A stretch of DNA of 53,687 nt from Clostridiaceae bacterium (GTDB lineage: Bacteria > Bacillota > Clostridia > Saccharofermentanales > DTU023), in assembly GCA_012518845.1 (NCBI GenBank), contig JAAYRJ010000047.1, positions 1 to 53,687 on the forward strand. The letters are read 5' to 3'. The notes under the pieces are model-generated. The model saw only the letters and a list, made by a program, of their open reading frames with translations, was not told the DNA's origin and ran no database searches. Shown here in pieces: positions 27,452 through 46,017 of the stretch (positions are counted from its first letter, which is position 1; each line of letters opens with the position of its first letter). The position numbers and the translations under genes were made by a program.

Positions 27452-28888
27452 ATGAGCAAAACAACAAAACAAAAAACAACTTTCAGCTTAATAATCTTGT
27501 TATTAATAAGCTTTTTACTAATTAATTTGGGCAATGCCAAAACTCAAATAGTGCAAGCCAATATTTTTGGTTTTTTTAAAGATGAAGATAGCCAAGTAAC
27601 AGAGCTAGACAACCAGAATATTTCTATTCAGACAGATGACAGTTACTGGTTACTACCCGGAAATTTTTTAGAACAGGAAGAGCCACAACAAGATATTACT
27701 TATCCTGATTTTTCGGAAATTGAAGCAGCCCAATATATTGTTATGGATATGGAAAGTGGCGAAGTTTTACTTGAACAAGGCATGAATGAGATAGCATATC
27801 CAGCAAGCATGACAAAAATCTTAACTGCACTAACTGTTTTAGAATCTCCTGATTTTGATCTAGAAAAACCAATTGTTTTTTCAGAATATGCAGTTGAAAT
27901 GCCCTCACCAGTATCAGTAACCGCAGGTTTTTCTCCTGGCGAAGAATCAACAACTAAAAACGCTCTTGCCTTAATGTTAATTAAGTCAGCTAATGATTGT
28001 GCAAAAGCGTTAGCAGAAAATTATGGTGGTACAGAAGCAGATTTTGTAAACTTAATGAATGAAAAAGCAGAGGAAATTGGTTGTACAAATACTAATATGA
28101 CAGAAGCTGCTGGTTTTGGTTTGGAAGATCATTATTTCTCACCCCATGATCTTGCCTTGATCATTCAAAGAGCTATGCAAAATGAAGTTTTTAAAGAGAT
28201 CGTTTCAACCAAAACCTATTTTGCGGAGCCAACATCTTTTAGACCATCAACAGGTTGGGAAGTAATCAATAATAGTAACCTTTTATTGCTGCAAGGGGAC
28301 GATTTATTAAATTCTCCTTATCTTCACACATATGACGGTGTAAAAACTGGTACCACAGATCTTGCAGGTCATTGTCTATCTGCAACTGTTCATACTTATG
28401 ATGGTAGACATTTATGTGGAATTATTTTTAATGGCAATCTAGAATTAGGATCGGGTAGAACGCAAGTTGGTGTTTTGCTTAGAGGAATTTTAGAACAAGC
28501 TGCAATTAATGCTAATTGTCCAGCTGATGAAGCAGCATTAGAATTTTTAAAAGATCATACAGAAGTAGTTGCAAAAATTCAAGAAGTAAAAAATGAACAA
28601 ATAAATCAAATATTTGGTTTAAATGAGAAAGCAGAACAAGAGGCTCAAGTAACAGAGACAACTCCTCCTCAAACAATAAATGAAGAGACTTATACTGAAA
28701 CAATGCTAGAGGAGCGAGCTGATCAATTAGAACCTTCAGACCAGACAGAATCTTCGGAGCAAACAAATTTATTACAAAAAATTAAAGATCTACCTAATAC
28801 AGTAATCATGGGTCTTTTATTTCTTTTGTTTATATTACTAATATTTCTTTTTATTAAACTCCTCAAACCAAGAAAAAAGAAAAAATAA
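27452..28888 (+). CDS. Serine-type D-alanyl-D-alanine carboxypeptidase (PBP5/DacB-like low-molecular-weight PBP) with C-terminal membrane anchor
   Basis: 478 aa. Signal peptide, SxxK (PASMTKILT), SxN (KSANDCA), KTG (VKTGTT), an acidic linker and a C-terminal TM VIMGLLFLLFILLIFLFI followed by KPRKKKK. Confidence 0.85.
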   Translation: MSKTTKQKTTFSLIILLLISFLLINLGNAKTQIVQANIFGFFKDEDSQVTELDNQNISIQTDDSYWLLPGNFLEQEEPQQDITYPDFSEIEAAQYIVMDMESGEVLLEQGMNEIAYPASMTKILTALTVLESPDFDLEKPIVFSEYAVEMPSPVSVTAGFSPGEESTTKNALALMLIKSANDCAKALAENYGGTEADFVNLMNEKAEEIGCTNTNMTEAAGFGLEDHYFSPHDLALIIQRAMQNEVFKEIVSTKTYFAEPTSFRPSTGWEVINNSNLLLLQGDDLLNSPYLHTYDGVKTGTTDLAGHCLSATVHTYDGRHLCGIIFNGNLELGSGRTQVGVLLRGILEQAAINANCPADEAALEFLKDHTEVVAKIQEVKNEQINQIFGLNEKAEQEAQVTETTPPQTINEETYTETMLEERADQLEPSDQTESSEQTNLLQKIKDLPNTVIMGLLFLLFILLIFLFIKLLKPRKKKK

Positions 28889-31613: not shown

Positions 31614-31963
31614 ATTTCACCTCTTTAAGTTATTTTTTCGAAAACATGAGATGAAATAAGATAAAATTATTTTATGAATTTCTTTAAGTAATTATACACA
31701 ATTCATTGATTAATTTAAATATAAAGATCAAATTATTTTTAGTTACTTATCATGAAAAGCAAAACACTCTCTAAGAAAAATAATTTTTATAACTATGTTT
31801 TTCTTGTATAATTAGCAGTAATTTACCAGTTGGATTAATTATTGAAAAAACAAAGTAGTTGTTGTAGATGATTTTACAATTCTCTTACTATTTGTTGTAA
31901 TAGCTTTATTGATTTTAATATCTTTGAGAAACTATTATTTGATCAATAATGTAAGGTATACAG

Positions 31964-32851
31964 ATGAGCAAAACAAAGAAAACAAAAAATAAGAGGGCAC
32001 AAAGAATATTAATTTTCTTTGTTTTTTTAATAGGATTAGCTATATTTAGCTATCCACTATTTTCACGTTGGTATTACCAAATTGATGCAAATCAAGAAGT
32101 TTTAGATTTTAGAACCGAACAAAGCAAATTAGATGAAGTCGAGATCGAAGAACGTTTAGCTTTAGCACAAGCATATAATGATTCTTTAGTCAATTATGTG
32201 GCAGCAGATCCATATGAAAAAGAACGTCTGGATCAAGGTCTGGCCGAATACGCACGCATGCTAGAATTACATGAAAAAATAGGTATTGTGGAAATTCCCT
32301 CTATTAGTGTTAATCTCCCAGTTTATGCCGGCACATCTGAAATAGTTTTACAAAAAGGTGTGGGCCATCTTGAAGGAACTTCTTTACCAATAGGTGGCAA
32401 AAGTTCTCATACAGTTTTGACAGCTCATTCTGGTTTGCCTGAGGCCAAACTATTTAGTGAGTTAGAAAAAATGGAAATTGGTGACATTTTTTATATACAT
32501 AATTTAGGTATGACTTTAGCTTATGAAGTAGATAATATCTTAGTTATTGAACCATCAAATTTTGAAGACTTATTAATTGTTCAGAATCAGGATTATGCGA
32601 CTCTTCTAACTTGTACACCTATAATGATAAATTCACATCGTTTAATAGTCAGAGGACATCGAATAGCGTTTGATGCTGGTGTGCGTGATGATTTGATAGA
32701 TTCCAGCAAAAATGAATTACTAATACGTCGCTTACTAACAGTAGCTCTAATCTTAATTGTAATTTTCTTAATCTTAATATATCGTGAACGAAAAACACAT
32801 AAAAAATTAATCACTAAGCTAAATAAAATCAATAATAGTCGTGATATATAG
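31964..32851 (+). CDS. Class C (pilin-polymerising) sortase
   Basis: 295 aa. N-terminal TM, AQAYN, lid-like DPY, IPSISVNLPVYAGTS, catalytic His in VLTAHSGLP, Cys in ATLLTCTP, Arg in LIVRGHRI, and a C-terminal TM. Confidence 0.9.
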   Translation: MSKTKKTKNKRAQRILIFFVFLIGLAIFSYPLFSRWYYQIDANQEVLDFRTEQSKLDEVEIEERLALAQAYNDSLVNYVAADPYEKERLDQGLAEYARMLELHEKIGIVEIPSISVNLPVYAGTSEIVLQKGVGHLEGTSLPIGGKSSHTVLTAHSGLPEAKLFSELEKMEIGDIFYIHNLGMTLAYEVDNILVIEPSNFEDLLIVQNQDYATLLTCTPIMINSHRLIVRGHRIAFDAGVRDDLIDSSKNELLIRRLLTVALILIVIFLILIYRERKTHKKLITKLNKINNSRDI

Positions 32852-34184
32852 GTTAATTATGCAGCAGGAAGATACAACAAACATAAAAAAAGCCAAGCAT
32901 TATCGCGTCTTAAAAAGAATAGCCTTGATTTTGATAATGGTATTTTTGATGTCTCCATTATTTTTTCATTTAATGTATCGAGAGTATCAAGATGAACAAA
33001 TCAAAAACTTTGAAGTTGATGTTAACGCCATGCCGGATTATGAAACAGAAGAACGGATGCGTTTAGCGAGAGCATACAATGCCAATTTACCTGAACAGAA
33101 TGATCGTGGTTTTAGCTTAGTGGGCAATCTCTTTGGTATTTTAGAAATACCAGCTTTGGATTTAGTTTTACCCATTTATTTAGACGAACAAACGGCAGAA
33201 TTTACCTATGAACCACCATCTCTCATAGATACAGAAGATTGGATAAGTCAGCGCCCAACTAGAACTAATCCAACAATTGAAGCCAGTGAGGGCGAACAAA
33301 TAGATACTACTTTCAAAATTACACAATCCGTAGAAATTCCTACTACTAGTCAAGCAACAACAAGCCAAACAGAGACAACAGCTTCTAGTGAACAAACTGA
33401 GACAATAGCTCCTAGTGAACAAACAGAGACTGAACCGACCAGTACAGCATCTGAAACAACCCAAACTCAAGCAACAGAAAGTAGCACTATAGCAGAAACC
33501 GAAACAACAATTGAAGCAACGACAGAAAAATTGACTGAGACAGAAATAACTCAATCAGCAGAAGCAAAAGTTACCTCAGATATCTGGCAAGCTATCGATG
33601 ATTTTTTTTCTGGTGACAGATTAGCCACCAAATTTAGCACTTGGTATGAAAATCAAGCCCATCAGCTATTTTCAGATAAAGGTGTTTATCATCATAAGGG
33701 TAGTTTTGTTCCTGATGGCGGTGAGAATCAACCACTTGTCTTATTTGGTAATCAGGGCAATATTGTTATGCCAGAGCTATTTCGTTTAGAAAAGCTACCA
33801 AAAAACAGTAATATTTTACTACACACTTTTAACTCAACCATAAATTACCAAGTTAAAGCAATCAACAAAAATAAAGTTGACCAAACTGAATTAGTAATTA
33901 CTGATTCACCCCATGATTTACAAATTATTGCTCAATCCAAAACAACTAATACCATTGTAGAGGCTGCTAGGGTTGAGACTAGGGAGGCTAATATGAATGA
34001 AATATTAAGTAATCCGACAGTTTTCATTTTACTCTTGCCTGTTATCTTAGTATTAATTGGAATTTTCATCTATCAAAGGATAACCAACAAAAAATTAGAA
34101 AATCGAATTAAAGAAATTGAACGCAAGGTGCAAGAACAAGCTAAAGAAGACAATCGTTCTCAGGCAAATAGTGAAAAAAACTAA
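32841..34184 (+). CDS. Sortase C-like paralog lacking catalytic His and Cys, with a Thr/Glu/Ser/Gln-rich insertion (pseudo-sortase)
   Basis: 447 aa, colinear with the preceding sortase: N-terminal TM, ARAYNANL, ILEIPALDLVLPIY, KGVYHHKGSFVPDGG (versus KGVGHLEGTSLPIGG). TAHSG is replaced by FGNQG and LLTCTP by IIAQSK. A ~130-aa low-complexity insert (about aa 125-255) interrupts it. C-terminal TM VFILLLPVILVLIGIFIY. It overlaps the upstream sortase by 11 nt. An alternative ATG lies at 32859. Confidence 0.65.
   Translation: MIYRLIMQQEDTTNIKKAKHYRVLKRIALILIMVFLMSPLFFHLMYREYQDEQIKNFEVDVNAMPDYETEERMRLARAYNANLPEQNDRGFSLVGNLFGILEIPALDLVLPIYLDEQTAEFTYEPPSLIDTEDWISQRPTRTNPTIEASEGEQIDTTFKITQSVEIPTTSQATTSQTETTASSEQTETIAPSEQTETEPTSTASETTQTQATESSTIAETETTIEATTEKLTETEITQSAEAKVTSDIWQAIDDFFSGDRLATKFSTWYENQAHQLFSDKGVYHHKGSFVPDGGENQPLVLFGNQGNIVMPELFRLEKLPKNSNILLHTFNSTINYQVKAINKNKVDQTELVITDSPHDLQIIAQSKTTNTIVEAARVETREANMNEILSNPTVFILLLPVILVLIGIFIYQRITNKKLENRIKEIERKVQEQAKEDNRSQANSEKN
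33381..33434 (+). repeat. Imperfect 27-nt tandem duplication inside the low-complexity insert of the pseudo-sortase
   Basis: GCTTCTAGTGAACAAACTGAGACAATA followed by GCTCCTAGTGAACAAACAGAGACTGAA: 22 of 27 identical, encoding ASSEQTETI/APSEQTETE. Confidence 0.7.
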
Positions 34185-34285
34185 GCTCAAACTAGCAAAA
34201 TTTAAAGTTACAAATATTAAAGTTTTATTAGAAATTTGTTATAATGGACCACAGACGTATTATTTTTCTAAAGAGGAGGATATGT

Positions 34286-34750
34286 GTGCAATTAAATATT
34301 ACTACCGATTATGCAATTCGTTCTGTTTTGTTTTTAGCTTTGAGGGATGAAATTGTTAAGAGTCAAGAAATTGCAAATTATGCAAATTCATCACCTAATT
34401 ATATTTTTAAGATCCTAAGAAAGCTAGTCGATGCTGGCTATGTTAAAGAACATCGTGGTGTTAAAGGTGGATATAAATTGATAGTATCCCCAGCACAGCT
34501 AACACTCTGGGATATAATTGAACTTATGGAGCCAAAGACCCATATTAATCGTTGTGTAGAAGATTCAGAATTTTGTTTTAGATCGAAGTCAGAACGTTGT
34601 CGTGTTCATGCCATTTATCTTGATTTACAAAATAGAATAGAAAACTTTTTCAAGAGTTATTCGATCCAACGGATAATAGATGAACAAGCCCAAGTAAGCG
34701 TAGAATTTATAGAAGAGGTAACTAAAATAAGCGTCAAAGCTTGTTCTTGA
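34286..34750 (+). CDS. Rrf2-family transcriptional regulator with a three-cysteine (probable Fe-S) motif
   Basis: A GTG start at 34286, 6 nt after AGAGGAGGA, gives MQLNITTDYAIRSVLFLA, the typical Rrf2 N-terminus. The wHTH is SQEIANYANSSPNYIFKILRKLVDAGYV..HRGVKGGY. Cys cluster CVEDSEFCFRSKSERC. The track ORF opens upstream at 34244. Confidence 0.8.
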   Translation: MQLNITTDYAIRSVLFLALRDEIVKSQEIANYANSSPNYIFKILRKLVDAGYVKEHRGVKGGYKLIVSPAQLTLWDIIELMEPKTHINRCVEDSEFCFRSKSERCRVHAIYLDLQNRIENFFKSYSIQRIIDEQAQVSVEFIEEVTKISVKACS

Positions 34751-34844: not shown

Positions 34845-35507
34845 ATGTTAAAATTATGGTACGAAACGGCAATGGATACAGAACTCAATGTTGAGACAAT
34901 TCCGTTGCGTGAATGGCAAGATCAAGCCAAAAGAAAACATTATAATCGGACCGAATCTACACCTTATCAAGCAATTGATGAATTGTTTGAATATTATCAA
35001 ATGCCTCACAATGCCAATTTTGTTGACTTTGGCTGCGGGACTGGTAGAATAGCTTTTTATGTGCACAATCGTTTTAATGTTCCTGTTACGGGAGTCGAAT
35101 TGAATCCTCTAACATATAAAGACTTACAAAAAAATCTCAAGACATATAATAAGCGTGATCTTACATCTGATGACAGGTCAGATTACATAAACCCACAAAA
35201 TAAGATTGCACCCATTAACTTTTTTTTAGAATATGCAGAAGAGTTTCAGATACAAAAAGAGCACAATGTTTTTTATTTTTTTAATCCGTTTTCAACCCCT
35301 ATCTTTGAAGCTGTCATCAACAACATTAAAAAATCACTAAAAAAACATCCACGTCAAGTGGATATAATCTTATACTATCCTTTATACGAAGTTCAATCAT
35401 TATTAGAGAAACAAACAATTTTCAAACGTCTAGGTACATTATATTTAGATGAAATTTACGAAGATGAATTTGAAAAGTTTCTTGTTTACAGATACATGGT
35501 AGACTAA
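34845..35507 (+). CDS. Class I SAM-dependent methyltransferase, substrate unknown
   Basis: 220 aa. Motif I FVDFGCGTGRIAFYV, motif II-like TGVELN, post-I acidic residue. Confidence 0.65.
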   Translation: MLKLWYETAMDTELNVETIPLREWQDQAKRKHYNRTESTPYQAIDELFEYYQMPHNANFVDFGCGTGRIAFYVHNRFNVPVTGVELNPLTYKDLQKNLKTYNKRDLTSDDRSDYINPQNKIAPINFFLEYAEEFQIQKEHNVFYFFNPFSTPIFEAVINNIKKSLKKHPRQVDIILYYPLYEVQSLLEKQTIFKRLGTLYLDEIYEDEFEKFLVYRYMVD

Positions 35508-35846: not shown

Positions 35847-36437
35847 TTGGGATCTAAAGCTAGCACAAAGAATATAACGCCAGAAATCGATCAAGTTGAG
35901 CAAGAATTAGAAAAAGAAATAGAAAAAAAGAGATTTCGCAAAGCCTTAAGATCAACGATATTTTCATTAATTACAGTTGCGGCTATTGCAGTAATTATTT
36001 CTGTCTTTTTTCTACCGGTGTTACGTCTTTACGGGAGTTCAATGACCCCAGGTCTTAATGATGGTGATATTGTGATCGCTTTAAAAAAACAAGAATATGA
36101 GGCAGGCGAAGTAGTAGGACTTTACTATGGCAACAAGCTTTTAGTAAAAAGAATTATTGCAGGTCCAGGTGACAAAGTCGACATAGACGAAGTAGGCAAT
36201 GTCTATGTCAACAATGAATTATTAGTAGAAGATTATTTAGACGAAAAAAATTATGGCGAAGTCACAATAGATTTACCTTACCAAGTACCAGAAAATAGAT
36301 GGTTTGTGATGGGAGATCATCGATCAACTTCCATTGATTCAAGGAACAGGACGGTAGGAACCATTTCAAATGATCAGATTGTAGGCACTTTAATTTTTAG
36401 AATTTGGCCCTTGGATTCACTCGGTAAAATTGAATAA
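35847..36437 (+). CDS. Type I signal peptidase (LepB/SipS family), pilus-locus associated
   Basis: 196 aa, TTG start. N-terminal TM IFSLITVAAIAVIISVFFL, box B with Ser (YGSSMTPGL), box D with Lys (LLVKRIIAGPGD), box E (FVMGDHRSTSIDSR). Confidence 0.85.
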   Translation: MGSKASTKNITPEIDQVEQELEKEIEKKRFRKALRSTIFSLITVAAIAVIISVFFLPVLRLYGSSMTPGLNDGDIVIALKKQEYEAGEVVGLYYGNKLLVKRIIAGPGDKVDIDEVGNVYVNNELLVEDYLDEKNYGEVTIDLPYQVPENRWFVMGDHRSTSIDSRNRTVGTISNDQIVGTLIFRIWPLDSLGKIE

Positions 36438-36463: not shown

Positions 36464-39400
36464 ATGTTAAAAAAATTACTTGAAATTATAGAAGAAAAGA
36501 AAAATGATAGACGCTGGAGAAGAGTTTTTATCTCCTCTGTTTTTGTTGTGATTTTTTTAACAATTTATGCTCTAACTTTACCTGCCATTACTTTAGATAC
36601 TGAAAAGGCAGTAGATCAAAATATTGTGCCTGGCCAAATAGAAGACACTATTCAAGTATCTGAATCTGAAACTACAGAGGTAACGTCACCTGCTGAGTCG
36701 AAACCTCAACGAGAACAGATTATTGAGTTTGATCTGGCTGAACAAACAACCATTCAAGAATCGAAATCAAGCCCAAGTCAAGGTCCTGAACAAGTAACCT
36801 CAAAAACACAAGAAGTCACAGAGCCTCAAAAATCAAATGTAAAGCAAGATCTAAACTTTAAGGACGAATCAGGCAAAACAAAAACAGAAGTCAAAATCGA
36901 TAATAGTGAAGTAGCTGAGGATGCAGTCTTAAAGGTTGAAACATTAGCTGCAGATCAAGCTGATTTGCTGAGAAAAAAAGCACAAATTGAAGCAAAAATT
37001 GAAGGAGAAATAAAAGAAATCATCTTTTATGATATTTCCTTTTTTGAGCAGGCTGGCGACTATATTCAAATGGATGAAACAGCCGCAGTTTCCTTAGATA
37101 CTGAAGCAGAAAAATTAACAGTAGAAGCTATTGATGAAATAACGGTCTTTCATTTTGAAGATGATGGACCGACTGAACTAGCAACCGAAGTTTCTCTCAA
37201 TCAAGATCAAGAATTAGAAGAAGTTAATTTTGAAACAGATGGCTTTTCTGTCTTTGCTGTGGTCAAACATTCCACCTGGACAGAAGCAAGAATTGATTCT
37301 GACCCATATTATTTGAAAACAGACATTGATGCAAATAATTCTCAATATCTCTATTTTGATACAGATGACACATTAAAGCATCAGGCTGATTGGACTGATA
37401 CTGGGCTTCATTTACATCAAATAGCTGGCAATAATTACTATATATCTAACCTTGCTAGAAACAAATATTTAGCTATTAATAACAATAATATCTCAATAGT
37501 AAATTCAGAAGCCAATGCTACCAAATTTAAACTATACAATCATTCAACAGAACCGCATACAGGTAAAGTAATGATTCAAGTTGCCGATTCCAATGGGACG
37601 CCGCAGATATTTGCCTATAACAAAACATCAGAAGAATATGAAATAGTCAACTCCTATGAAAAAACAGAGCCATCTATTATTTATCATGAATTTATCCCTC
37701 ACGATCCAGAATATATAGATGACTTTACACAACCTGATCTGATTGATGCGATAATACCAGATGGAGCATATGAGATTAGAGATTCTTATGGCAATTATAA
37801 TTTAGCAAATACCTATTCAATATCAGGTGATCCGGATGCTGCTCATATATTATTTAGACAGACATTTAATTTCCAAAGGCAAGCCGATGGAAGGTATCTA
37901 ATTACTTCTACTTTTAATAATAATTATTATCTAAGAATTGGAAATAATAAGCCAGTTGGCGGATACTATGGGGTTGTTGTTTGCAGGGATTATCAGGGAT
38001 TAGATGCTGCGCAATTAGATGGTAAATATATAAGAATTGCTGCATTAAAAACTCATCCTGATCTTTTCTATATTTACAATGATTATGGATCTTTACAATG
38101 GTATAAATCAGGTATTTCTGTACATAAATTTGGCTCAAGGGCTCCTAGTATGGGAAATCCATTGAGAATTTACAAAAATGGACAAAGTTTTAATCATTTA
38201 GAAAGCCAACCAACAGAAATATTAGCAGATATTAGAGATGGAAATTATGTAATCGGCAAAGCAAATTATCCACCAGATTGGAATGATCCTAATAATACAG
38301 AGTCGCCAGAAAATCTAGCTAATCCAAGCAGGATGGATTTAAATGCTTTAAATTTTAATGGTAGCGCAATAGAAAATCAAGCTGGATATATTCATGTAAA
38401 TGAAAAAGCTACAAATGATAATAATGAATATCATACGATTGAGTCTATTGGAAATATTGACCCGACCCAGTGGACCTTCAGCCAAACAGATAGACCAGGC
38501 TATTACACAATCACAAGTGGTAATCAATATTTGAAGTTTGATGGAGTACAAGTAGAATTATCCACAAATCCTCAAGAAATAAGAATTAGTAAACCAAATG
38601 ATAGAGTGGACCAAATAATGTTGATACATGGCGGTAATCGCTTGAGATATGTTGGGACAGGTTGGTCAGCTGTACCAAATTCAATAGCTTTAACCGATGC
38701 CGATTATCACTATATTGGAAAATTAATCGACGATGATATCCATTTTGAACTGACAAATCCAGAATTGGAGAATGGCAATAATTGGCTCAATAATGTCAGG
38801 CTTATGAAGGCAATGAAATTAAGCGATTTAAAAGGAAGTCTTGAAGCAAATATTCCAAAAGGCAATGCCAATGCAAGAGGTCCAATTGGTAGAAAATATG
38901 CACTTCAAAATCAAGGGCAGTTAACAACGCCCTTTGACAATCTTTATCGAATGGCCTTAGCGGATCTTGAACAAGGGCAATCCAATCCACCAGATCATTT
39001 TAAAGAATTTGCTTTTTTGGGCTGGGAATATACACAAGATGGAACAGTCTATATTATCGATGGGGATGCAGACTTTACGGAGAATGCAACACAACAAGGA
39101 ATCACAATAGATAAGCAATATGTCAAAAAATCTGATGGGAGTCCGTCTGATGTCGATGTTTTCATTCCATATGGCAATAGCGAAAATCCACTCAAAACAA
39201 AATGGCGCGAGCTTTCGGCTCCATTGTATTTCTATTTTAATCATGGTTCCGGAATCATGGACTTGGAAAGAGCGATTAGTGTTGATGAGCTTCTTGAAAG
39301 AGAATCAAATGCCAATCATTTATCAGGCACAGTCGCTAGAGGAAGATTGTTTTATGGACAAGATATAAATGATGTTATCAATAATGCCACTACTTCTTCG

Positions 39401-41761
39401 ATTACTGCCAATGCTAACCTTCAAAATAGATTTAAATCAAGATTTAGTCTCAATCTTACTGCTGATAATCTTATAAATCTAGATGAGAAATATCTCAATC
39501 AAATATTTATAGAGACAAGCCCAGGAGATGTTACGGCAGGTCAAACAATCACCCAGAATAAATTAAAAGAAGACTCAATTAATTGGCTTAATACAGAAAA
39601 TAAAATTCTCTCCATTCTTAAAAAATCCATAGATGGGACAGAGGATATTTATTATAAAATCGCTCCTGCCAATGTAAAAATAGAAAATTACAATATTGAT
39701 TTTTTAAATTTAGACAATAAGGCGAATGGTGTTTTCTTGCAAGGTATCGCCTATGGGGAAATGATAAATTTATCAATAGACAAGCAATTTACCAATCTGA
39801 CATTGGAACAGGTCAATGCGATAAAAGATCTCCATTCCACTGGGATTCCTAATAGTGAACAAGAAAAATATACTATTACCATTGAAGACGATGATAATTC
39901 GGATACTTTATACAAATTGACCTTTGACAATCCACAAACCCAATCAGCCTATCCACAAGTGGGGGATTCACCTAAAACTTATGATGCAATTGAAAGAGTT
40001 AGCAATAACTTTAATCAAACTGATCTAAGCGTTCAATGGCAGGCCAGAGTTTTTAAAGATGAAAAATACAAATTAGTGGAAAGTGGCATGGGCATGGATA
40101 GTAGTCTAACAGATGGTAAGAAAATGAATTTCTATAGTAAAATTATCCCAGTTAGGACAGATGGGGTGAATGTTGAGCCACAATTAGATGTTTTTTCCTA
40201 TGCCACACCAAAAATGAAGACATTAGAGACAGATATTATAAATACTGGTGAAGTGGATCATGTTCTTTTCTATAATCTCTACTCTTCTGAAGGCATGGTC
40301 ATCTTAACAAAGACAGATCAAGATGGCATGTTACTAAAGGGGATTGAATTTGAATTATATAGAAAAGAAGGAGAGAATGAAACGCTTGTAGACAAACTGA
40401 TAACACGTCCCGATGGAACGCTGGTGTTTACAGATTTACCTGGTAAAAAACTCAATAGTACTGAGAAAGTAACATATGTATTAAAAGAAGTTGAAAATCA
40501 AGACTCTATTTATAAATCATTACCAGACTTTACCTTTTCAATAGAGGAAATTCATGGAGATAAAAGAAATGTACATTCAATTTATGATTTTACAAATAAT
40601 CAATATTACACAGCAAAAGCTGGTAATTTTAATGATGGCGATAGGGGATTTAATTTTATCGATGTAACAAATACCATAGATGACATCCCATTATTAATGA
40701 TTGAAAAACAATTTGAAGGAATAACTTTCGCTGAATTTGATGCAATTGCTTTAAGTGATGGAGCTGATACATTTTATATTGAATTAATAGCAAAGAATGA
40801 TGGTGTGCAATATACAGAGATATTAAATTATAATAATGCAAATTTTGTTGGAAGAGATAAAAGCATGAAATGGTATATCGAAACATTTGATGATGGAGCT
40901 GGTGGCACAATTCTATTTAATGAAATGGATGAAATAGTCGTCAATGAATACAATCCAGAAATAGAAAAATATCCAGTAATAAAAAGAAATGCAACAATCA
41001 ATGAAGTAGCTATCAATCCTTTGGATTATCCCTATATAATTAAAAATGATCAATTTGTAGGAGCAGGCCAAACAGCTTTCCATTTGACCAATACCTATAC
41101 CGATGTCTTTGACTTGGCACTTCAAATAGAAGGTCGTTCAAAAAACTTCAATGATTATATACCTTTAGAAGGTATAAAATTTAAATTATATGGCGATCTA
41201 GATGAAGGTGGCGACCCTAATAAACCAAAAGACATAAATGGTACAACACTTTATCAATTGGAAAAAGAACATCAAAATATAGCTGCCACAGGACATACAG
41301 GATATTATTCAACAAATAATCAAGGAATAGATATTATCTACAATCTATCCTTTTATCCTGACAATCAATATGCCCTTGATCAAATATATGATCCAAATAG
41401 CGGGAAAGATCAAACATATTATCCATTGGAAAATCCATTTATTGTTGAAATAGTAAATCAAGGCGGAAAATTAACACCTAGCTTGAAAATGAAAATCGGA
41501 GAAGAATATAAAGATCTAACCAAAGAAGAAGTCAAAACCGAGATGGGCGTTTTTAGAGCTACTTATCAAAATGAATTGATGATCTTAAGGCTCCAACTTG
41601 ACCGAACCAATTACCGCCTACCAGAAACAGGAGGCATAGGTAGAGAAGTTATTAACAAAGTAGCAGTTATCACAATTGTGGCAGCTTCAACTTTATTAAT
41701 ATATAGAAGAAAAAAACATTTAACTAAATTACAAAGGAGAGGAAAAAATGAAAAAATTTAG
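36464..41761 (+). CDS. Very large LPETG-anchored surface protein; candidate pilus tip adhesin with lectin-like (beta-trefoil-type) repeats and SpaA/CnaB-type Ig-like domains
   Basis: 1765 aa. N-terminal signal/anchor VFISSVFVVIFLTIYALTLPA and an acidic spacer. Repeats of the type QWTFSQTDRPGYYTITSGNQYLKF / FNFQRQADGRYLITSTFNNNYYLRIG / HQIAGNNYYISNLARNKYLAI. Prealbumin-like fold block MVILTKTDQDGMLLKGIEFELYRKEG...DGTLVFTDLPG and a second one, LEGIKFKLYGD. Sorting signal LPETG (41618-41632), then a TM and a basic tail. Confidence 0.75.
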   Translation: MLKKLLEIIEEKKNDRRWRRVFISSVFVVIFLTIYALTLPAITLDTEKAVDQNIVPGQIEDTIQVSESETTEVTSPAESKPQREQIIEFDLAEQTTIQESKSSPSQGPEQVTSKTQEVTEPQKSNVKQDLNFKDESGKTKTEVKIDNSEVAEDAVLKVETLAADQADLLRKKAQIEAKIEGEIKEIIFYDISFFEQAGDYIQMDETAAVSLDTEAEKLTVEAIDEITVFHFEDDGPTELATEVSLNQDQELEEVNFETDGFSVFAVVKHSTWTEARIDSDPYYLKTDIDANNSQYLYFDTDDTLKHQADWTDTGLHLHQIAGNNYYISNLARNKYLAINNNNISIVNSEANATKFKLYNHSTEPHTGKVMIQVADSNGTPQIFAYNKTSEEYEIVNSYEKTEPSIIYHEFIPHDPEYIDDFTQPDLIDAIIPDGAYEIRDSYGNYNLANTYSISGDPDAAHILFRQTFNFQRQADGRYLITSTFNNNYYLRIGNNKPVGGYYGVVVCRDYQGLDAAQLDGKYIRIAALKTHPDLFYIYNDYGSLQWYKSGISVHKFGSRAPSMGNPLRIYKNGQSFNHLESQPTEILADIRDGNYVIGKANYPPDWNDPNNTESPENLANPSRMDLNALNFNGSAIENQAGYIHVNEKATNDNNEYHTIESIGNIDPTQWTFSQTDRPGYYTITSGNQYLKFDGVQVELSTNPQEIRISKPNDRVDQIMLIHGGNRLRYVGTGWSAVPNSIALTDADYHYIGKLIDDDIHFELTNPELENGNNWLNNVRLMKAMKLSDLKGSLEANIPKGNANARGPIGRKYALQNQGQLTTPFDNLYRMALADLEQGQSNPPDHFKEFAFLGWEYTQDGTVYIIDGDADFTENATQQGITIDKQYVKKSDGSPSDVDVFIPYGNSENPLKTKWRELSAPLYFYFNHGSGIMDLERAISVDELLERESNANHLSGTVARGRLFYGQDINDVINNATTSSITANANLQNRFKSRFSLNLTADNLINLDEKYLNQIFIETSPGDVTAGQTITQNKLKEDSINWLNTENKILSILKKSIDGTEDIYYKIAPANVKIENYNIDFLNLDNKANGVFLQGIAYGEMINLSIDKQFTNLTLEQVNAIKDLHSTGIPNSEQEKYTITIEDDDNSDTLYKLTFDNPQTQSAYPQVGDSPKTYDAIERVSNNFNQTDLSVQWQARVFKDEKYKLVESGMGMDSSLTDGKKMNFYSKIIPVRTDGVNVEPQLDVFSYATPKMKTLETDIINTGEVDHVLFYNLYSSEGMVILTKTDQDGMLLKGIEFELYRKEGENETLVDKLITRPDGTLVFTDLPGKKLNSTEKVTYVLKEVENQDSIYKSLPDFTFSIEEIHGDKRNVHSIYDFTNNQYYTAKAGNFNDGDRGFNFIDVTNTIDDIPLLMIEKQFEGITFAEFDAIALSDGADTFYIELIAKNDGVQYTEILNYNNANFVGRDKSMKWYIETFDDGAGGTILFNEMDEIVVNEYNPEIEKYPVIKRNATINEVAINPLDYPYIIKNDQFVGAGQTAFHLTNTYTDVFDLALQIEGRSKNFNDYIPLEGIKFKLYGDLDEGGDPNKPKDINGTTLYQLEKEHQNIAATGHTGYYSTNNQGIDIIYNLSFYPDNQYALDQIYDPNSGKDQTYYPLENPFIVEIVNQGGKLTPSLKMKIGEEYKDLTKEEVKTEMGVFRATYQNELMILRLQLDRTNYRLPETGGIGREVINKVAVITIVAASTLLIYRRKKHLTKLQRRGKNEKI

Positions 41762-43382
41762 TAAAAACATCACAATGCTAATACTTGCCCTAGTCTTAAT
41801 CTTGGCAAGCATTAGCCCCCAAGCAGCAGAAGCACAGAATAATGGTAAGATAACCATTACCAATCCAACAGAAGGCGTAACATATGAAATCTATAGGGTG
41901 TTTGATTTGACCTATAGTTATGAAGGAACTGCTGATAATAAAACTAATGAAGCATATAACTATACAGCAGTATCAGCAGATTTGGAAACGGCACTTACAG
42001 GAACAGATTATGCTAGGATATTAACAGATAAAACGAATCAAGCAGGAAGAAAAATAGTTAATGATAAGATACTTTATCCTCTTGATGATGGCACAACAGG
42101 AACAGGCGATATAATTAATAAATACGACTTTTCCAATTGGTTATATAATAATGGCAAGCCAGCAGATTTGGGATTGGTAAAAGTTAATGATACAGGGACA
42201 ACTGGAACTGAAGGATTAGAGTTTTCTAATTTACCACTAGGCTATTATCTTATTAAATCAAGCCAAGGCTCAATCGTATCCCTTAATACAACAGACACAG
42301 AAGTAGAAGTGGTTGACAAAAACATTAAGCCAACATTGACAAAGCAGGTAAGATTACCAGTGGCGACAGGTGAACAAGAAAATGCATTTGCTGATTCAGT
42401 TTATGCTAATATTGGTGAAAATGTAAATTATCAAATAGAATTTACAGTTCCAGCACATGCCAATCATCCTTTTACATTAACAGATATTTTAGGTACTAGT
42501 CTTGATTATGTATCTGGATTAAAAATTGAAAGAGTGGATAGTACAAATGCTGCTACAGATATTACTGCTGGAACTGAAACAGGCTATACAATAACAAAAA
42601 CATCAACATTTTCAGGTGATACTCCCAGAGAATTAAAACTCACTTTCCCCGTAGAAACCATTAGAAATTTAAGAAATCAAACAGTAAGAATTACTTATAC
42701 AGCAAAATTAAATAATACTGCTAGTACGAGTAATCACTCTGGACTAGTTGATAATTTAAATAATACAACATTAGCTTTTGACCCTTCAACAGATGTAGAA
42801 GATTTAACTGCAAAAGCATCAGTAAGAACCACAGACTTTAATGTTAAGAAATATACGCTCGATGGCACTACAGAAAAACCATTAGCCAATGCAAAATTTA
42901 AGATCTTCACAGAAGCTACTGGCGGCACTGCATTAAAATTTACTAAAGATGCAACATCAGAAAAATATTATCATGATCCGACAGGAATCGTTGACGAAAT
43001 AACCACTACAACTGAAGGAACTGTAAATGCAACTTTCAATATCGTAGGTCTTAAACCAGGAACATACTACATCGAAGAAACAGCAGCACCTGATGGTTTT
43101 AATGCAATTCAAGGAAGAATTAAATTAGAGATTGCTGAGGAAACTGTAACACCACCAGCTACTAATCCAACAAAAATGACTTATAAAGCAACCATTGAAG
43201 AAACAGCATCAGATTTAACAGACAACACCGTAAAAATCAAAAACCAATCCGGTGGTGAGCTTCCATCCACAGGTGGTGTTGGACGTACGATGATTTATAC
43301 AGTTGGAGCTATTTTATTCATAGGTTCATTAGTATTGATTATTGCTAGAAAGAGATCAAAGAGTACAGAGAATAACAAATAA
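41748..43382 (+). CDS. Major (backbone) pilin, SpaA/RrgB-like, LPSTG sorting signal
   Basis: 544 aa. Signal peptide ITMLILALVLILASISPQAAEA and N-terminal domain GKITITNPTEGVTYEIYRVFDL. Pilin-motif-like lysine context EVEVVDKNIKPTLTKQV. E-box YYIEETAAPDGFNA. LPSTG (43260-43274), then a TM and a basic tail. AGGAGAGGA RBS. The start lies inside the last 14 nt of the tip adhesin gene. Confidence 0.85.
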   Translation: MKKFSKNITMLILALVLILASISPQAAEAQNNGKITITNPTEGVTYEIYRVFDLTYSYEGTADNKTNEAYNYTAVSADLETALTGTDYARILTDKTNQAGRKIVNDKILYPLDDGTTGTGDIINKYDFSNWLYNNGKPADLGLVKVNDTGTTGTEGLEFSNLPLGYYLIKSSQGSIVSLNTTDTEVEVVDKNIKPTLTKQVRLPVATGEQENAFADSVYANIGENVNYQIEFTVPAHANHPFTLTDILGTSLDYVSGLKIERVDSTNAATDITAGTETGYTITKTSTFSGDTPRELKLTFPVETIRNLRNQTVRITYTAKLNNTASTSNHSGLVDNLNNTTLAFDPSTDVEDLTAKASVRTTDFNVKKYTLDGTTEKPLANAKFKIFTEATGGTALKFTKDATSEKYYHDPTGIVDEITTTTEGTVNATFNIVGLKPGTYYIEETAAPDGFNAIQGRIKLEIAEETVTPPATNPTKMTYKATIEETASDLTDNTVKIKNQSGGELPSTGGVGRTMIYTVGAILFIGSLVLIIARKRSKSTENNK

Positions 43383-43406
43383 TGGTAGATCATCAAGGGT
43401 GATCAT

Positions 43407-44249
43407 GTGAAAAAAGATAAAGTTTCAATTATTTTAGCGATCTTTTTATTGATAGGGATCTCCCTTTTGCTCTACCCCTCGATTTCGGATTTCTGGAATG
43501 CTTCTAGATCAACTAGGGTTTCTAATGAATATGATGAGGAAGTAGCCAATCTTTCTCATAAGAAAATTCAAGACATCTTAGAAGATGCTAGAGCCTATAA
43601 TGACAGGCTGCTTAACAGATCATATCCGACCACTATGACGGAAGAGGAATTAGCAGATTACTATGAGCAGTTGAGTTTAGAGAATAGTCAGGTGATGGCA
43701 AATGTCGAAATTCCATCTGTTAATATCTCGTTACCAATTTATCATGGGACATCTGATAATATTCTGCAGTCGGCAGTGGGACATATTGAATGGACTTCCT
43801 TACCGGTTGGCGGTCTTGGTACCCATTCCACAATAACGGGCCATCGGGGTCTGCTTTCGGCTAGGCTTTTTACCGATATTGATCAAATGGTGGAGGGGGA
43901 TGTTTTTTACATATATGTTTTAGGTGAAAAACTAACTTATCTGGTTGATCAAATAAAAATTGTCTTACCACATGAAATCAATGAATTGTTGATTGACCCA
44001 AATGAGGATTATGTAACTTTATTAACATGCACGCCTTATGGTATTAATACACATCGGCTTTTAGTTAGAGGTCACCGGATTGAGAATGAGGAAGCTGAAC
44101 TTTATTTAATCTCGGAGGCAACGCCGGTTAAGCCAGTTTATGTGGCTTTAGTATTGATGGTACCTTTATCGATAGCTGTAATTATTTTGTTACTTTATTT
44201 TGATAAAAGAAGATTGAGGAAGGAACAAGCGAAGAGGGAAATCAAATAA
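43407..44249 (+). CDS. Class C (pilin-polymerising) sortase, second copy
   Basis: 280 aa, GTG start. N-terminal TM, ARAYNDRL, IPSVNISLPIYHGTS, His in TITGHRGLL, Cys in VTLLTCTPYG, Arg in LLVRGHRI, C-terminal TM. Confidence 0.9.
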   Translation: MKKDKVSIILAIFLLIGISLLLYPSISDFWNASRSTRVSNEYDEEVANLSHKKIQDILEDARAYNDRLLNRSYPTTMTEEELADYYEQLSLENSQVMANVEIPSVNISLPIYHGTSDNILQSAVGHIEWTSLPVGGLGTHSTITGHRGLLSARLFTDIDQMVEGDVFYIYVLGEKLTYLVDQIKIVLPHEINELLIDPNEDYVTLLTCTPYGINTHRLLVRGHRIENEEAELYLISEATPVKPVYVALVLMVPLSIAVIILLLYFDKRRLRKEQAKREIK

Positions 44250-45227
44250 GTGAGCAAAAAAAATATTATTTACATTTTAATATTTATACTCTTACTTTTC
44301 CAAATGCCTGTTATAGTAAATGGCCAGGTGGTAGTTGAGTTGCCAGATTCTAATTTAAATCCAGTTGGTAATGTGTATTATCTTGGATCTTTTTCTGGAA
44401 ATAATTTAGTTTTTTCTGAGGACTTTAAAGAATTAGAAAATAGAGGCCTTAAGATAACGCAATCAAACTACACTGATAAAAATATTCAGCAAAGTCTGGA
44501 GTTTTTTGTTGCGGAAAAAGGGATGAAGCCACTTGTTTCTTTAAAAACAGAAGCTAACCAATTAAATTTTGAACCTACTGAACCCGGCCTTTACGGAATC
44601 ATTTATGACAAGAAAAAAATTGGTAACAATGTATATCAATTTAGATCAAGTTTTTTTAATTTCAATAATCAAAACCTCTCCTTTGAAATTAAACCAGATA
44701 AAATTTCCGTAGAAGCAGCTGAGCAGATTTTGGTTCGGGTTAGATGGCTTAATATTCCTGCCAAAGATAGACCAGAATATATTTCTCTTTCTTTATTTAG
44801 TCTTGGGGAGCTATTGCGTACACAAACCTTAGATCAAAACAATTTATGGAGTTTTGCTTTTACCAACTTAAATCCAGAGCAACTTTATGGTCTGATGTTA
44901 GAATTACCAGCAGGATTCGCTTACCGAATTAGGTCTGTAGGCGCTGGGCAATATGTTTTGGAGATTTATAGAACAACAGCTTCTGATCCCAGTAAATTAG
45001 AAGACCCAAAATCAACTGGCAGCCAGGTTAAGACAGATTCTATTTATACAGGTAAAATAAGAGGAGATGCAGATGATCTGGGTCAAAAGCCAGATGATGA
45101 GCTAAAAGCCAGGGAAGAAAAACTTCCCTACACCGGGCAACTTTGGTGGCCTGTACCTCTTTTGATTTTTGCTGGACTTATCTTATTTTTGCTTAGTATT
45201 TTAGGTGAAGAAAATGAAGAAAACTAA
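44250..45227 (+). CDS. Minor pilin / pilus base subunit candidate with CnaB-like domain and LPYTG sorting motif
   Basis: 325 aa, with a GTG start directly abutting the sortase stop. Signal peptide IIYILIFILLLFQMPVIVNG. CnaB-like LVRVRWLNIPAKDRPEYISLSLFSLGELLRTQTLDQNNLWSFAFTNLNP. LPYTG (45123-45137) then a hydrophobic stretch, but the tail is acidic (GEENEEN). Confidence 0.65.
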   Translation: MSKKNIIYILIFILLLFQMPVIVNGQVVVELPDSNLNPVGNVYYLGSFSGNNLVFSEDFKELENRGLKITQSNYTDKNIQQSLEFFVAEKGMKPLVSLKTEANQLNFEPTEPGLYGIIYDKKKIGNNVYQFRSSFFNFNNQNLSFEIKPDKISVEAAEQILVRVRWLNIPAKDRPEYISLSLFSLGELLRTQTLDQNNLWSFAFTNLNPEQLYGLMLELPAGFAYRIRSVGAGQYVLEIYRTTASDPSKLEDPKSTGSQVKTDSIYTGKIRGDADDLGQKPDDELKAREEKLPYTGQLWWPVPLLIFAGLILFLLSILGEENEEN

Positions 45228-45846
45228 CAAAAAAATATTGCGTATCTCAGGTTTATTACTATTATTTTTAGCACTATTACTTGTCGTGCACAATATTATT
45301 CAGGACAAAAATGCAGAAAAAACATCCAAGCAAGTATTAGCAAAATTTGAAGAATCAAAAGAACAACTCCAAATAGCGACAAGGACAAAATCGGAAAATA
45401 CAAACACAATTACAAATACCTTAATTTTACCAGATGAGGAAGAAGAAATCCTTATAGTAGACGTAGATGGAGCCCCAATTGTTGGTGTCTTAGAAATTCC
45501 AAACATTGATTTAAAGCTACCGGTAACAGTAGATTGGCATGAAGATTTGATGTGGGGCTATGCCAATTTATATCATGGGGAAAATTATTCAGACTCGCTT
45601 GTTATTATGGCACATGGTAATAAATCACATTTTGCTGGCCTTAATTATTTAGTAGAAGGCGATCAAGTTATTTTTACAGATGTATTAGACAGGCAAAAAG
45701 TTTATGACTTTGCAGGCAAAGAAATTATTCATGAAAATAATGTAGAAGAAATGATCGAAACAAATTATCCCTTAACTCTTTTTACTTGTACATTAGACGG
45801 TAGATCCAGAGTGACAGTACGCTTAACCGAAGCAGAGCTGAATTAA
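45214..45846 (+). CDS. Small sortase-family transpeptidase (class not assignable by eye; not class C-like in length)
   Basis: About 210 aa. N-terminal TM ISGLLLLFLALLLVV, LEIPNIDLKLPV, His in LVIMAHGN, Cys in LTLFTCTLDG, Arg in RVTVRL. The track ORF opens at GTG 45205. ATG 45214 follows AGGTGA. It overlaps the end of the minor pilin gene. Confidence 0.8.
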   Translation: MKKTNKKILRISGLLLLFLALLLVVHNIIQDKNAEKTSKQVLAKFEESKEQLQIATRTKSENTNTITNTLILPDEEEEILIVDVDGAPIVGVLEIPNIDLKLPVTVDWHEDLMWGYANLYHGENYSDSLVIMAHGNKSHFAGLNYLVEGDQVIFTDVLDRQKVYDFAGKEIIHENNVEEMIETNYPLTLFTCTLDGRSRVTVRLTEAELN

Positions 45847-45941: not shown

Positions 45942-46017
45942 GCCCATTTAGCTCAGTAGGTAGAGCGCATCCATGGTAAGGATGAGGTCGCCGGTTCAAT
46001 TCCGGCAATGGGCTCCA
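45942..46017 (+). tRNA. tRNA-Thr (anticodon GGU), CCA encoded
   Basis: Cloverleaf read by hand. Acceptor GCCCATT/AATGGGC. D arm GCTC-AGTAGGT-AGAGC. Anticodon stem CATCC/GGATG with loop ATGGTAA (U33, GGT, A37). Variable AGGTC. T arm GCCGG-TTCAATT-CCGGC. Discriminator T, then CCA. Confidence 0.9.

Follow-up and report, generated by a model that had tools for sequence, protein, structure and literature searches.

Can a sortase homolog that has lost its catalytic residues still serve a function, and if so, which? The question is raised by a 53,687-nucleotide (nt) stretch of DNA, hereafter the window, from Clostridiaceae bacterium (GenBank assembly GCA_012518845.1, contig JAAYRJ010000047.1, positions 1 to 53,687), in which a sortase-like open reading frame (ORF) at 32841-34184 follows the gene for an active class C sortase, SrtC1. 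Sortases are generally treated as uniformly catalytic cysteine transpeptidases. A sequence-only reading of the window had proposed that this ORF encodes a catalytically dead paralog of SrtC1, here termed the pseudo-sortase, and was aware of no characterised inactive membrane sortase paralogs; full-text literature searches bear out the latter point, as they gave no description of an inactive, pseudo- or degenerate sortase paralog. We present evidence that the pseudo-sortase is almost certainly a catalytically dead sortase homolog and that its gene is probably maintained by selection. As a whole, the observations are best explained, by a modest preponderance, by a lineage-specific pseudoenzyme that arose from a class C sortase and was selected as a non-catalytic membrane accessory.

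Results

The ORF at 32841-34184 exists as first described, with 447 amino acids (aa) when counted from GTG 32841, and has 441 aa when started at ATG 32859, from which residues are numbered here; all coordinates are on the forward strand unless stated. Judged by pairwise and profile comparisons, the likeness of its product to class C sortases exceeds chance. BLASTP against SrtC1 gave two colinear segments (residues 7-113, 26% identity, E of 9e-10; residues 280-341, 35%, E of 4e-6), in keeping with the colinearity noticed earlier, and the motif pairs then quoted as shared (e.g., ARAYNANL and AQAYNDSL) were all found in the BLASTP and MAFFT alignments. The native protein matched the NCBIfam class_C_sortase model NF033745 in two stretches (E of 1.6e-12; 47.6 bits, short of the cutoff of 160) and TIGR01076 over residues 279-360 (E of 1.2e-7), and its top match by sequence in the PDB, using phmmer, was Streptococcus pneumoniae SrtC (3g66; E of 9.8e-8). 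Alignment to the Pfam sortase family, PF04203, which had been suggested as a check, gave no match with the native protein, because a long insert sits 15 residues into the domain. Once the insert (residues 108-263) was removed in silico, the resulting insert-deleted construct matched PF04203 with 31.9 bits (gathering threshold, 26.6) over profile positions 1-104 of 125, the match stopping just short of the catalytic Cys segment. This construct also scored 43 bits with TIGR01076 (cutoff, 39.35) and 70.7 bits with NF033745. Homology to class C sortases is therefore evident, but the curated NF033745 cutoff is reached by neither the native nor the insert-deleted protein.

Judged from its residues, the pseudo-sortase cannot perform the cysteine transpeptidation of sortases. 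It contains no cysteine at all, so no alignment can supply a catalytic Cys. The catalytic His position is occupied by Asn298 (33750-33752; FGNQG versus TAHSG), on which BLASTP, phmmer against the PDB and MAFFT agree, and the catalytic Arg position by Asn364 (33948-33950; KTTNTIV versus NSHRLIV). In MAFFT alignments, Gln359-Ser360 (33933-33938) stand at the catalytic Cys position, where IIAQS replaces LLTCT of the context LLTCTP, and a four-residue deletion follows. The changed His and Cys contexts had both been recognised in the sequence-only reading, which would have abandoned its claim of a dead site had a Cys and a His been placed at the catalytic positions; we find no Cys, and Asn298 in place of His. 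The replacement of Arg and the decay of two further elements add to the losses described there. The lid region is reduced to a remnant (residues 78-92; 33090-33134) which, in both MAFFT alignments (A1 and A2), falls about 18 residues short of the length seen in active SrtC enzymes and lacks the DP(W/F/Y) anchor. The GYPSY motif of pilin-specific sortases, G-x5-YP-x2-S-xn-Y (PMC4829219), is degraded to I-x5-SP-x2-F-x3-Y, in which the Pro and the last Tyr alone are kept. Among 150 homologs, the TC motif is absent from just the pseudo-sortase and one truncated fragment. In the alignment, SrtC1 has all of its motifs intact (GYPSY, DPY lid, TAHSG with the His, TLLTCTP with the Cys and SHRLIVRG with the Arg). 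As it lacks the catalytic triad and the lid and scores below the curated cutoff, the pseudo-sortase falls outside the class C sortases by its sequence.

It is very improbable that the protein is instead an enzyme with a non-canonical nucleophile, such as Ser360 in place of the Cys. MAFFT alignment A2 does put Ser360 in the Cys column, but this column falls on Gln359 or on Ser360 depending on the alignment, the positions of the general-base His and the oxyanion-stabilising Arg are both Asn, and the deletion has removed four residues from the TLxTC loop. Serine sortases were not found in literature searches, and we know of none.

Outside the active site, much of the class C architecture is retained. 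An N-terminal transmembrane helix (about residues 21-40; 32919-32978), supported by Kyte-Doolittle windows above 1.6 and by a helix in AlphaFold2 (AF2) models, is followed by ARAYNANL (33066-33089), the conserved class C helix preceding the lid, which was recovered in the BLASTP, PDB and MAFFT alignments. The alignments also recover the beta1-beta2 hairpin of the barrel (ILEIPALDLVLPIY; 33129-33182), for which AF2 predicts strands at residues 91-97 and 102-108 with a predicted local distance difference test score (pLDDT) of 87-91. The C-terminal part of the barrel, beta3-beta8 (residues 274-372; 33678-33974), is supported by TIGR01076, AF2 strands and Foldseek, with target-normalised TM-scores of 0.73-0.80 to SrtC crystal structures. 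A C-terminal transmembrane helix (about residues 387-405; 34017-34073; Kyte-Doolittle values up to 2.9; AF2 helix with pLDDT of 91-95) leads into a charged cytoplasmic tail (residues 406-441; 34074-34181) that aligns with those of class C sortases and is modelled as a helix. The presence of both transmembrane segments, shared with class C sortases, had been proposed earlier and is borne out by hydropathy and by the models. The full-length AF2 model, guided by an alignment with 64 active sortases, has a mean pLDDT of 68.8, with barrel strands mostly at 70-92; the insert-deleted model, likewise guided by active sortases, reaches 75.1 and has eight strands. Foldseek searches of the PDB with these models returned class C sortases almost exclusively (best match 3g66_A; E of 2e-13; target-normalised TM-score of 0.77; root mean square deviation of 3.2 Å over 186 columns), and target-normalised TM-scores to SrtC crystal structures were 0.72-0.80 for models that active sortases had guided. 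The pseudo-sortase is thus predicted to be anchored in the membrane at two points and to present a sortase-type domain outside the cell, in the class C architecture.

The barrel is split by the lineage-specific insert of about 156 aa (residues 108-263; 33180-33647), which appears as an alignment gap in all 64 sortases and lies between beta2 and the helix ahead of beta3. Residues 113-211 are rich in Thr, Glu, Ser and Gln and predicted to be disordered (AF2 pLDDT below 50), these four residues making up 69% of positions 129-215, and residues 215-272 are modelled as two helices forming a hairpin (pLDDT of 61-75). The earlier description of a Thr/Glu/Ser/Gln-rich insert splitting the fold is correct in composition and placement; the length of about 130 aa that it gave is too short. 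Tandem Repeats Finder located an in-frame 27-nt tandem repeat of 2.4 copies (SEQTETxAx; 89% matches; score of 109) at 33366-33430, with the unit length of the duplication reported previously, though not at the position given then (33381-33434). The repeat suggests that the insert grew through local duplication; no homolog of the insert was found by exhaustive phmmer against 1.84 billion representatives, and no donor sequence elsewhere in the window. An antisense ORF within the insert (33180-33554, minus strand; 124 aa) was rejected as a low-complexity artefact, codon scores being negative in all minus-strand frames. Similar Thr/Glu/Ser/Gln-rich linkers occur in the window at the C terminus of an S11 D-Ala-D-Ala carboxypeptidase (28650-28800) and at the N terminus of the tip pilin (36600-36850), which suggests a lineage-wide style of wall-spanning spacers.

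The pseudo-sortase is confined to one uncultured Bacillota lineage and is not a protein family. An indexed search of 5.8 billion clusters with the full protein returned only the protein itself and one ordinary sortase, and with the insert-deleted construct only the self-match. Exhaustive phmmer against the 1.84 billion representatives found nothing but the protein itself below an E of 1e-10, together with 28 other matches with E values from 3e-6 to 1e-3. Eight of these 28 were checked by eye and are ordinary sortases, seven of them with TCTP or TCHP and the eighth (P0136) a truncated fragment. A motif scan of the weak matches found the Cys motif in all but P0136, and they are ordinary sortases save for P0125, a 5,043-aa protein that was rejected as a homolog since its match looks spurious. 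The GTDB genome set yielded no ortholog, and nor did the JGI metagenome set, where the one match (L085) was dismissed as chance: it is an O-antigen-ligase-like membrane protein sharing the peptide INKNKVDQT. The search of related genomes for orthologs that the sequence-only reading had proposed therefore came back empty in clusters, representatives, GTDB and JGI sets alike. ENA, JGI and Logan assemblies contain an identical protein on 10 contigs in all, with the ORF intact on each, and three loci (L001, L002 and L088) match the window exactly in DNA. The PrfC protein of the window is 66-67% identical to those of the closest genomes (Fastidiosipilaceae, Saccharofermentans and Firm_14), in which no sortase was found near prfC.

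Is such an orphan a gene at all? With 27 further ORFs of the window as training set, codon-usage log-odds come out positive in this frame alone, at +0.32 bits per codon for the N-terminal part, +0.42 for the insert and +0.27 for the C-terminal part, as compared to +0.29 for SrtC1; other frames are negative. The window has a guanine-plus-cytosine (GC) content of 33.8%, and by our own arithmetic from base composition an open frame of 441 codons has a chance of about 3e-15 in random sequence. A frame of this length at 34% GC, with host-like codons in all three segments, argues that selection has kept the pseudo-sortase as a translated gene. We also simulated neutral drift by mutating srtC1 or srtC2 at the base composition of the genome. 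The probability of remaining free of stops was 0.29 at 95% identity to the ancestor, 0.08 at 90% and 0.02 at 85%, and no stop-free sequence was seen in 500 runs at 70%. The joint probability of replacing all three catalytic residues without a stop was at most 1e-4 at any divergence, a bound that becomes about 1e-3 once the first hit is assumed. Taken together, the simulations, the open frame and the host-like codon usage argue that this is not a neutrally decaying pseudogene, and neither a broken frame nor a lost coding signature was found. A count of conserved columns was tried as a measure of decay and set aside when its control failed: of 102 columns with a conservation of 90% or more in SrtC1-like sortases, the pseudo-sortase keeps 36, yet the apparently active 213-aa sortase of the same locus keeps 25 (other active class C sortases keep 46-71).

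A second haplotype, represented by L086 and L087, shares 99.6% identity with the window across 7.9 kb. In its pseudo-sortase gene, the sole difference is synonymous (CCG to CCA at 33437), with no amino-acid change and no indel in the 27-nt repeat, which is identical in both strains. In L086 (Logan SRR30427510), SrtC1 carries a TG to A change at 32338-32339 (L086 915-925) that causes a frameshift with an immediate TAG and splits SrtC1 into ORFs of 130 and 163 aa, the truncated product being present on two contigs; the pseudo-sortase is intact. The dead copy is hence not the more degraded of the two genes in this strain. The sequence-only reading had accepted that a recent pseudogene, with frameshifts in close relatives, would undo its proposal, and none is seen, as the frame is intact on 10 contigs and free of frameshifts in the second haplotype. 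Other differences between the strains were also noted. The SrtC1 start is duplicated in tandem over 12 nt (ATGAGCAAACAG|ATGAGCAAAACA; L087 552-575, window 31959-31964), which adds MSKQ at the N terminus to give a 299-aa product, and the three other SrtC1 differences (32818, 32821 and 32830) are all synonymous. Nine inter-strain single-nucleotide polymorphisms (SNPs) lie in a 44-nt stretch (35396-35439) of the methyltransferase-like gene, with three amino-acid changes; this cluster looks like a small recombination patch rather than an inversion.

These results bear on the possibility that the pseudo-sortase is a relic, i.e., a disabled tandem srtC copy that is open and perhaps translated but functionless and that forms, with SrtC1, the leftover of a sortase array being lost. 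We regard this as unlikely, although several observations agree with it: no orthologs were found, all catalytic features are gone, low complexity and recent tandem duplication, as in the insert, are typical of sequence free of constraint, the neighbouring SrtC1 is frameshifted in the variant strain and the pilus operon is equipped with its own sortase, SrtC2. Such a relic would, however, have had to keep 441 codons open at 33.8% GC against the odds calculated above and to lose three catalytic residues by drift without acquiring a stop. It would also have had to retain both transmembrane helices, the tail and the barrel strands, a codon usage equal to that of bona fide genes and, between strains, a sequence with no indel or amino-acid change, repeat included.

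Another explanation accepts the gene as functional and separates it from pili. The protein may be neofunctionalised, its barrel being a membrane-anchored scaffold that displays the loop and the helical hairpin in the wall zone; the displayed part might, for example, span the wall as a spacer, be glycosylated or act as a receptor. No other part of the protein is as large or as distinctive as the insert, which has the highest codon score and resembles the linkers of the S11 carboxypeptidase and the tip pilin; the ORF also persists where SrtC1 is frameshifted. We nevertheless consider this explanation quite unlikely, as the insert has no homolog and is modelled mostly at low confidence, and as the tight linkage to srtC1 and the nearby pilus operon favour a role in that pathway.

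The linkage to SrtC1 differs in detail from what had been proposed. SrtC1 (31964-32851; 295 aa) scores 270 bits with NF033745 (cutoff, 160) and matches Pfam Sortase with an E of 7e-23. An AGGT Shine-Dalgarno-like element (32850-32853), overlapping the SrtC1 stop codon TAG (32849-32851), lies 5 nt ahead of ATG 32859. A comparison of upstream sequences showed AGGT to be similar to the Shine-Dalgarno sequence of SrtC1 itself, AAGGT, and revealed no such element upstream of GTG 32841. Gene callers chose the ATG on 6 of 10 contigs and the GTG on 4. From these signals, ATG 32859 is the likely start of the pseudo-sortase coding sequence (32859-34184). This start leaves a 7-nt gap after the SrtC1 stop and no 11-nt overlap, but linkage is still tight. 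The reported overlap needs the GTG, and the co-translation deduced from it, being built on the less likely start, is not supported. No convincing promoter or terminator was found at the junction between the two genes, where the scan was not enriched over shuffled sequence. As there is no signal between them, and as the downstream Rrf2 gene apparently has a promoter of its own, SrtC1 and the pseudo-sortase look like a bicistronic unit in sequence. The Rrf2-family regulator gene (34244-34750) lies directly downstream; its likelier start is GTG 34286, with an AGGAGG Shine-Dalgarno sequence, rather than ATG 34244. An extended -10-like element (TGTTATAAT) at about 34238-34248 would be the regulator's own promoter, separate from the sortase pair.

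A complete pilus operon (36464-45846), identified from profile matches and translations, begins 2.3 kb downstream of the pseudo-sortase on the same strand, with the genes for the tip pilin, the major pilin and SrtC2 at distances of 2.3-10 kb. The association with pilin genes that is expected of class C sortases is therefore present. The candidate tip pilin (36464-41761; 1765 aa; LPETGG) had no NCBIfam match and, in Pfam, a single SpaA domain near the C terminus with weak lectin-like matches. It is followed by a SpaH/EbpB-type major pilin (41748-43382; LPSTGG), active SrtC2 (43407-44249), a 325-aa LPYTGQ protein (44250-45227) and, as the last gene, a divergent 213-aa sortase (45205-45846) that reaches just 39 bits with the class C model yet retains the His (MAHGN) and the Cys (LFTCT). 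Directly upstream of the tip pilin gene, and counted with the operon, lies a signal peptidase I homolog (35847-36437; TIGR02227, 115 bits; Pfam Peptidase_S26), whose translation keeps the Ser (GSSMTP) and Lys (VKRIIAGPGD) motifs. A tRNA-Thr(GGT) gene at 45942-46017, about 95 nt past the last gene of the operon, is a possible island boundary. No GC anomaly or island signature was seen across 31-46 kb, and Rfam found the tRNA alone in the window.

The nearest homologs of SrtC1, at 61-62% identity, are in a Logan metagenome contig (L004) and in Peptoniphilus sp. KCTC 25270 (L003). Both are the first of three overlapping active srtC genes in tandem, and the pseudo-sortase stands where the second gene of those arrays stands. 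Of the sortases compared, SrtC1-type enzymes came closest to the insert-deleted protein: the first one of the Peptoniphilus array gave 72 bits and SrtC1 of the window 53 bits, with SrtC2 and the 213-aa sortase below threshold. The simplest origin, judged from arrangement and similarity, would be a tandem srtC duplicate that has since decayed or been neofunctionalised.

Discussion

If the pseudo-sortase is a selected, non-catalytic membrane accessory, what might it do? A role specifically in the sortase/pilus pathway is a tentative suggestion from gene content, and we would put it below even chances. The groove, inert and without a lid, might take up LPXTG sorting signals, or the partner of the protein might be a sortase. 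The disordered Thr/Glu/Ser/Gln loop would reach into the wall zone, where its resemblance to the linkers of other exported proteins of the window probably places it, and the disordered stretch of about 100 residues, with the helical hairpin, would add a new interaction surface. The more specific model, in which a functional lid-less sortase barrel, anchored in the membrane at both ends, would assist pilus assembly as holdase, gate or scaffold by binding LPXTG signals or a sortase, is doubtful.

Several of our observations weigh against a selected accessory, or against its place in the pilus pathway. The pseudo-sortase is an orphan, as no ortholog was found in any of the databases searched. A single synonymous SNP between the two strains offers too little for testing selection and is not significant. 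Active sortases supplied the alignment that guided the AF2 models, which makes the agreement in fold circular in part: it demonstrates compatibility rather than providing independent proof. The pilus operon has its own SrtC2, and genes for the Rrf2 regulator, a methyltransferase and a small protein intervene between it and the pseudo-sortase. Finally, a frameshifted SrtC1 beside an intact pseudo-sortase makes an obligate partnership with SrtC1 unlikely, and the pair may be dispensable. The proposal of a pseudo-sortase retained as a non-catalytic partner is thus upheld for the dead paralog, with no Cys and with Asn at the His and Arg positions, and not for an obligate partner of SrtC1; the roles suggested alongside it, as a pilin-binding chaperone or scaffold, a substrate gate or a stalk-displayed decoy, are conjecture.

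The pseudo-sortase is a curiosity of one lineage rather than a new protein family, and its significance is limited by this confinement to a single uncultured lineage and by its being known here from sequence alone. If it is under selection, a dead sortase would represent the recruitment of the sortase fold as a pure binding module and, after SipA, the second type of pseudoenzyme in Gram-positive pilus biogenesis. A role as holdase, gate or scaffold would make it the counterpart of SipA with a sortase fold and the first sortase to have a biological function without catalysis. A naturally lid-less, non-cleaving groove could also serve as an LPXTG-binding reagent. The protein is, moreover, an example of how degenerate domains that are split by an insert escape Pfam annotation.

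Among known systems, the closest in sequence are the class C sortases (S. pneumoniae SrtC-1, 3G66 and 2W1J; Streptococcus agalactiae SrtC1, 3RBI; NF033745; PF04203). The pseudo-sortase shares with them a homologous sequence, the predicted barrel, the N-terminal transmembrane helix, the C-terminal transmembrane helix with its charged tail, the ARAYN helix, the motifs xVEIPxIxxxLPIY and KGVxHxxGxxxPxGG and a site in a pilus locus beside another srtC gene. Unlike them, it has no Cys, has Asn for His and Arg, lacks the DP(W/F/Y) lid, has a degraded GYPSY motif and carries a 156-aa insert between beta2 and beta3. In the tandem srtC arrays of Peptoniphilus and the Logan contig, the second gene likewise comes straight after a SrtC1-type gene, with minimal spacing and on the same strand; one homolog (P0053) is annotated as the PI-1 SrtC-1 of S. 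pneumoniae. Every copy in those arrays, however, has a complete triad, and neighbouring genes share about 20 nt, whereas the present locus has a dead second copy with an insert and lacks a third.

The nearest known concept, as the sequence-only reading suggested, is SipA/LepA, an inactive signal peptidase homolog in which the catalytic Ser and Lys have given way to Asp and Gly and which is essential for pilus polymerisation (PMC4049620). The analogy is apt (PMC4049620): both proteins are inactive homologs of an envelope-processing enzyme in a sortase-pilus locus, both have a membrane-anchored ectodomain, and a peptide-binding cleft could persist in the pseudo-sortase. The likeness is conceptual only, since SipA has the signal peptidase I fold and the pseudo-sortase a predicted sortase fold. 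SipA is also conserved across strains and species and experimentally essential, whereas the pseudo-sortase is an orphan. The signal peptidase homolog of the present locus occupies the position of SipA/LepA in streptococcal pilus loci, yet differs from SipA in having its catalytic Ser and Lys. A more distant parallel is provided by the degenerate LytM factors EnvC and NlpD, pseudoenzymes that activate amidases. Their fold and pathway are unrelated to those of the pseudo-sortase, and what is shared is the concept of a dead paralog that envelope biogenesis retains for binding or regulation.

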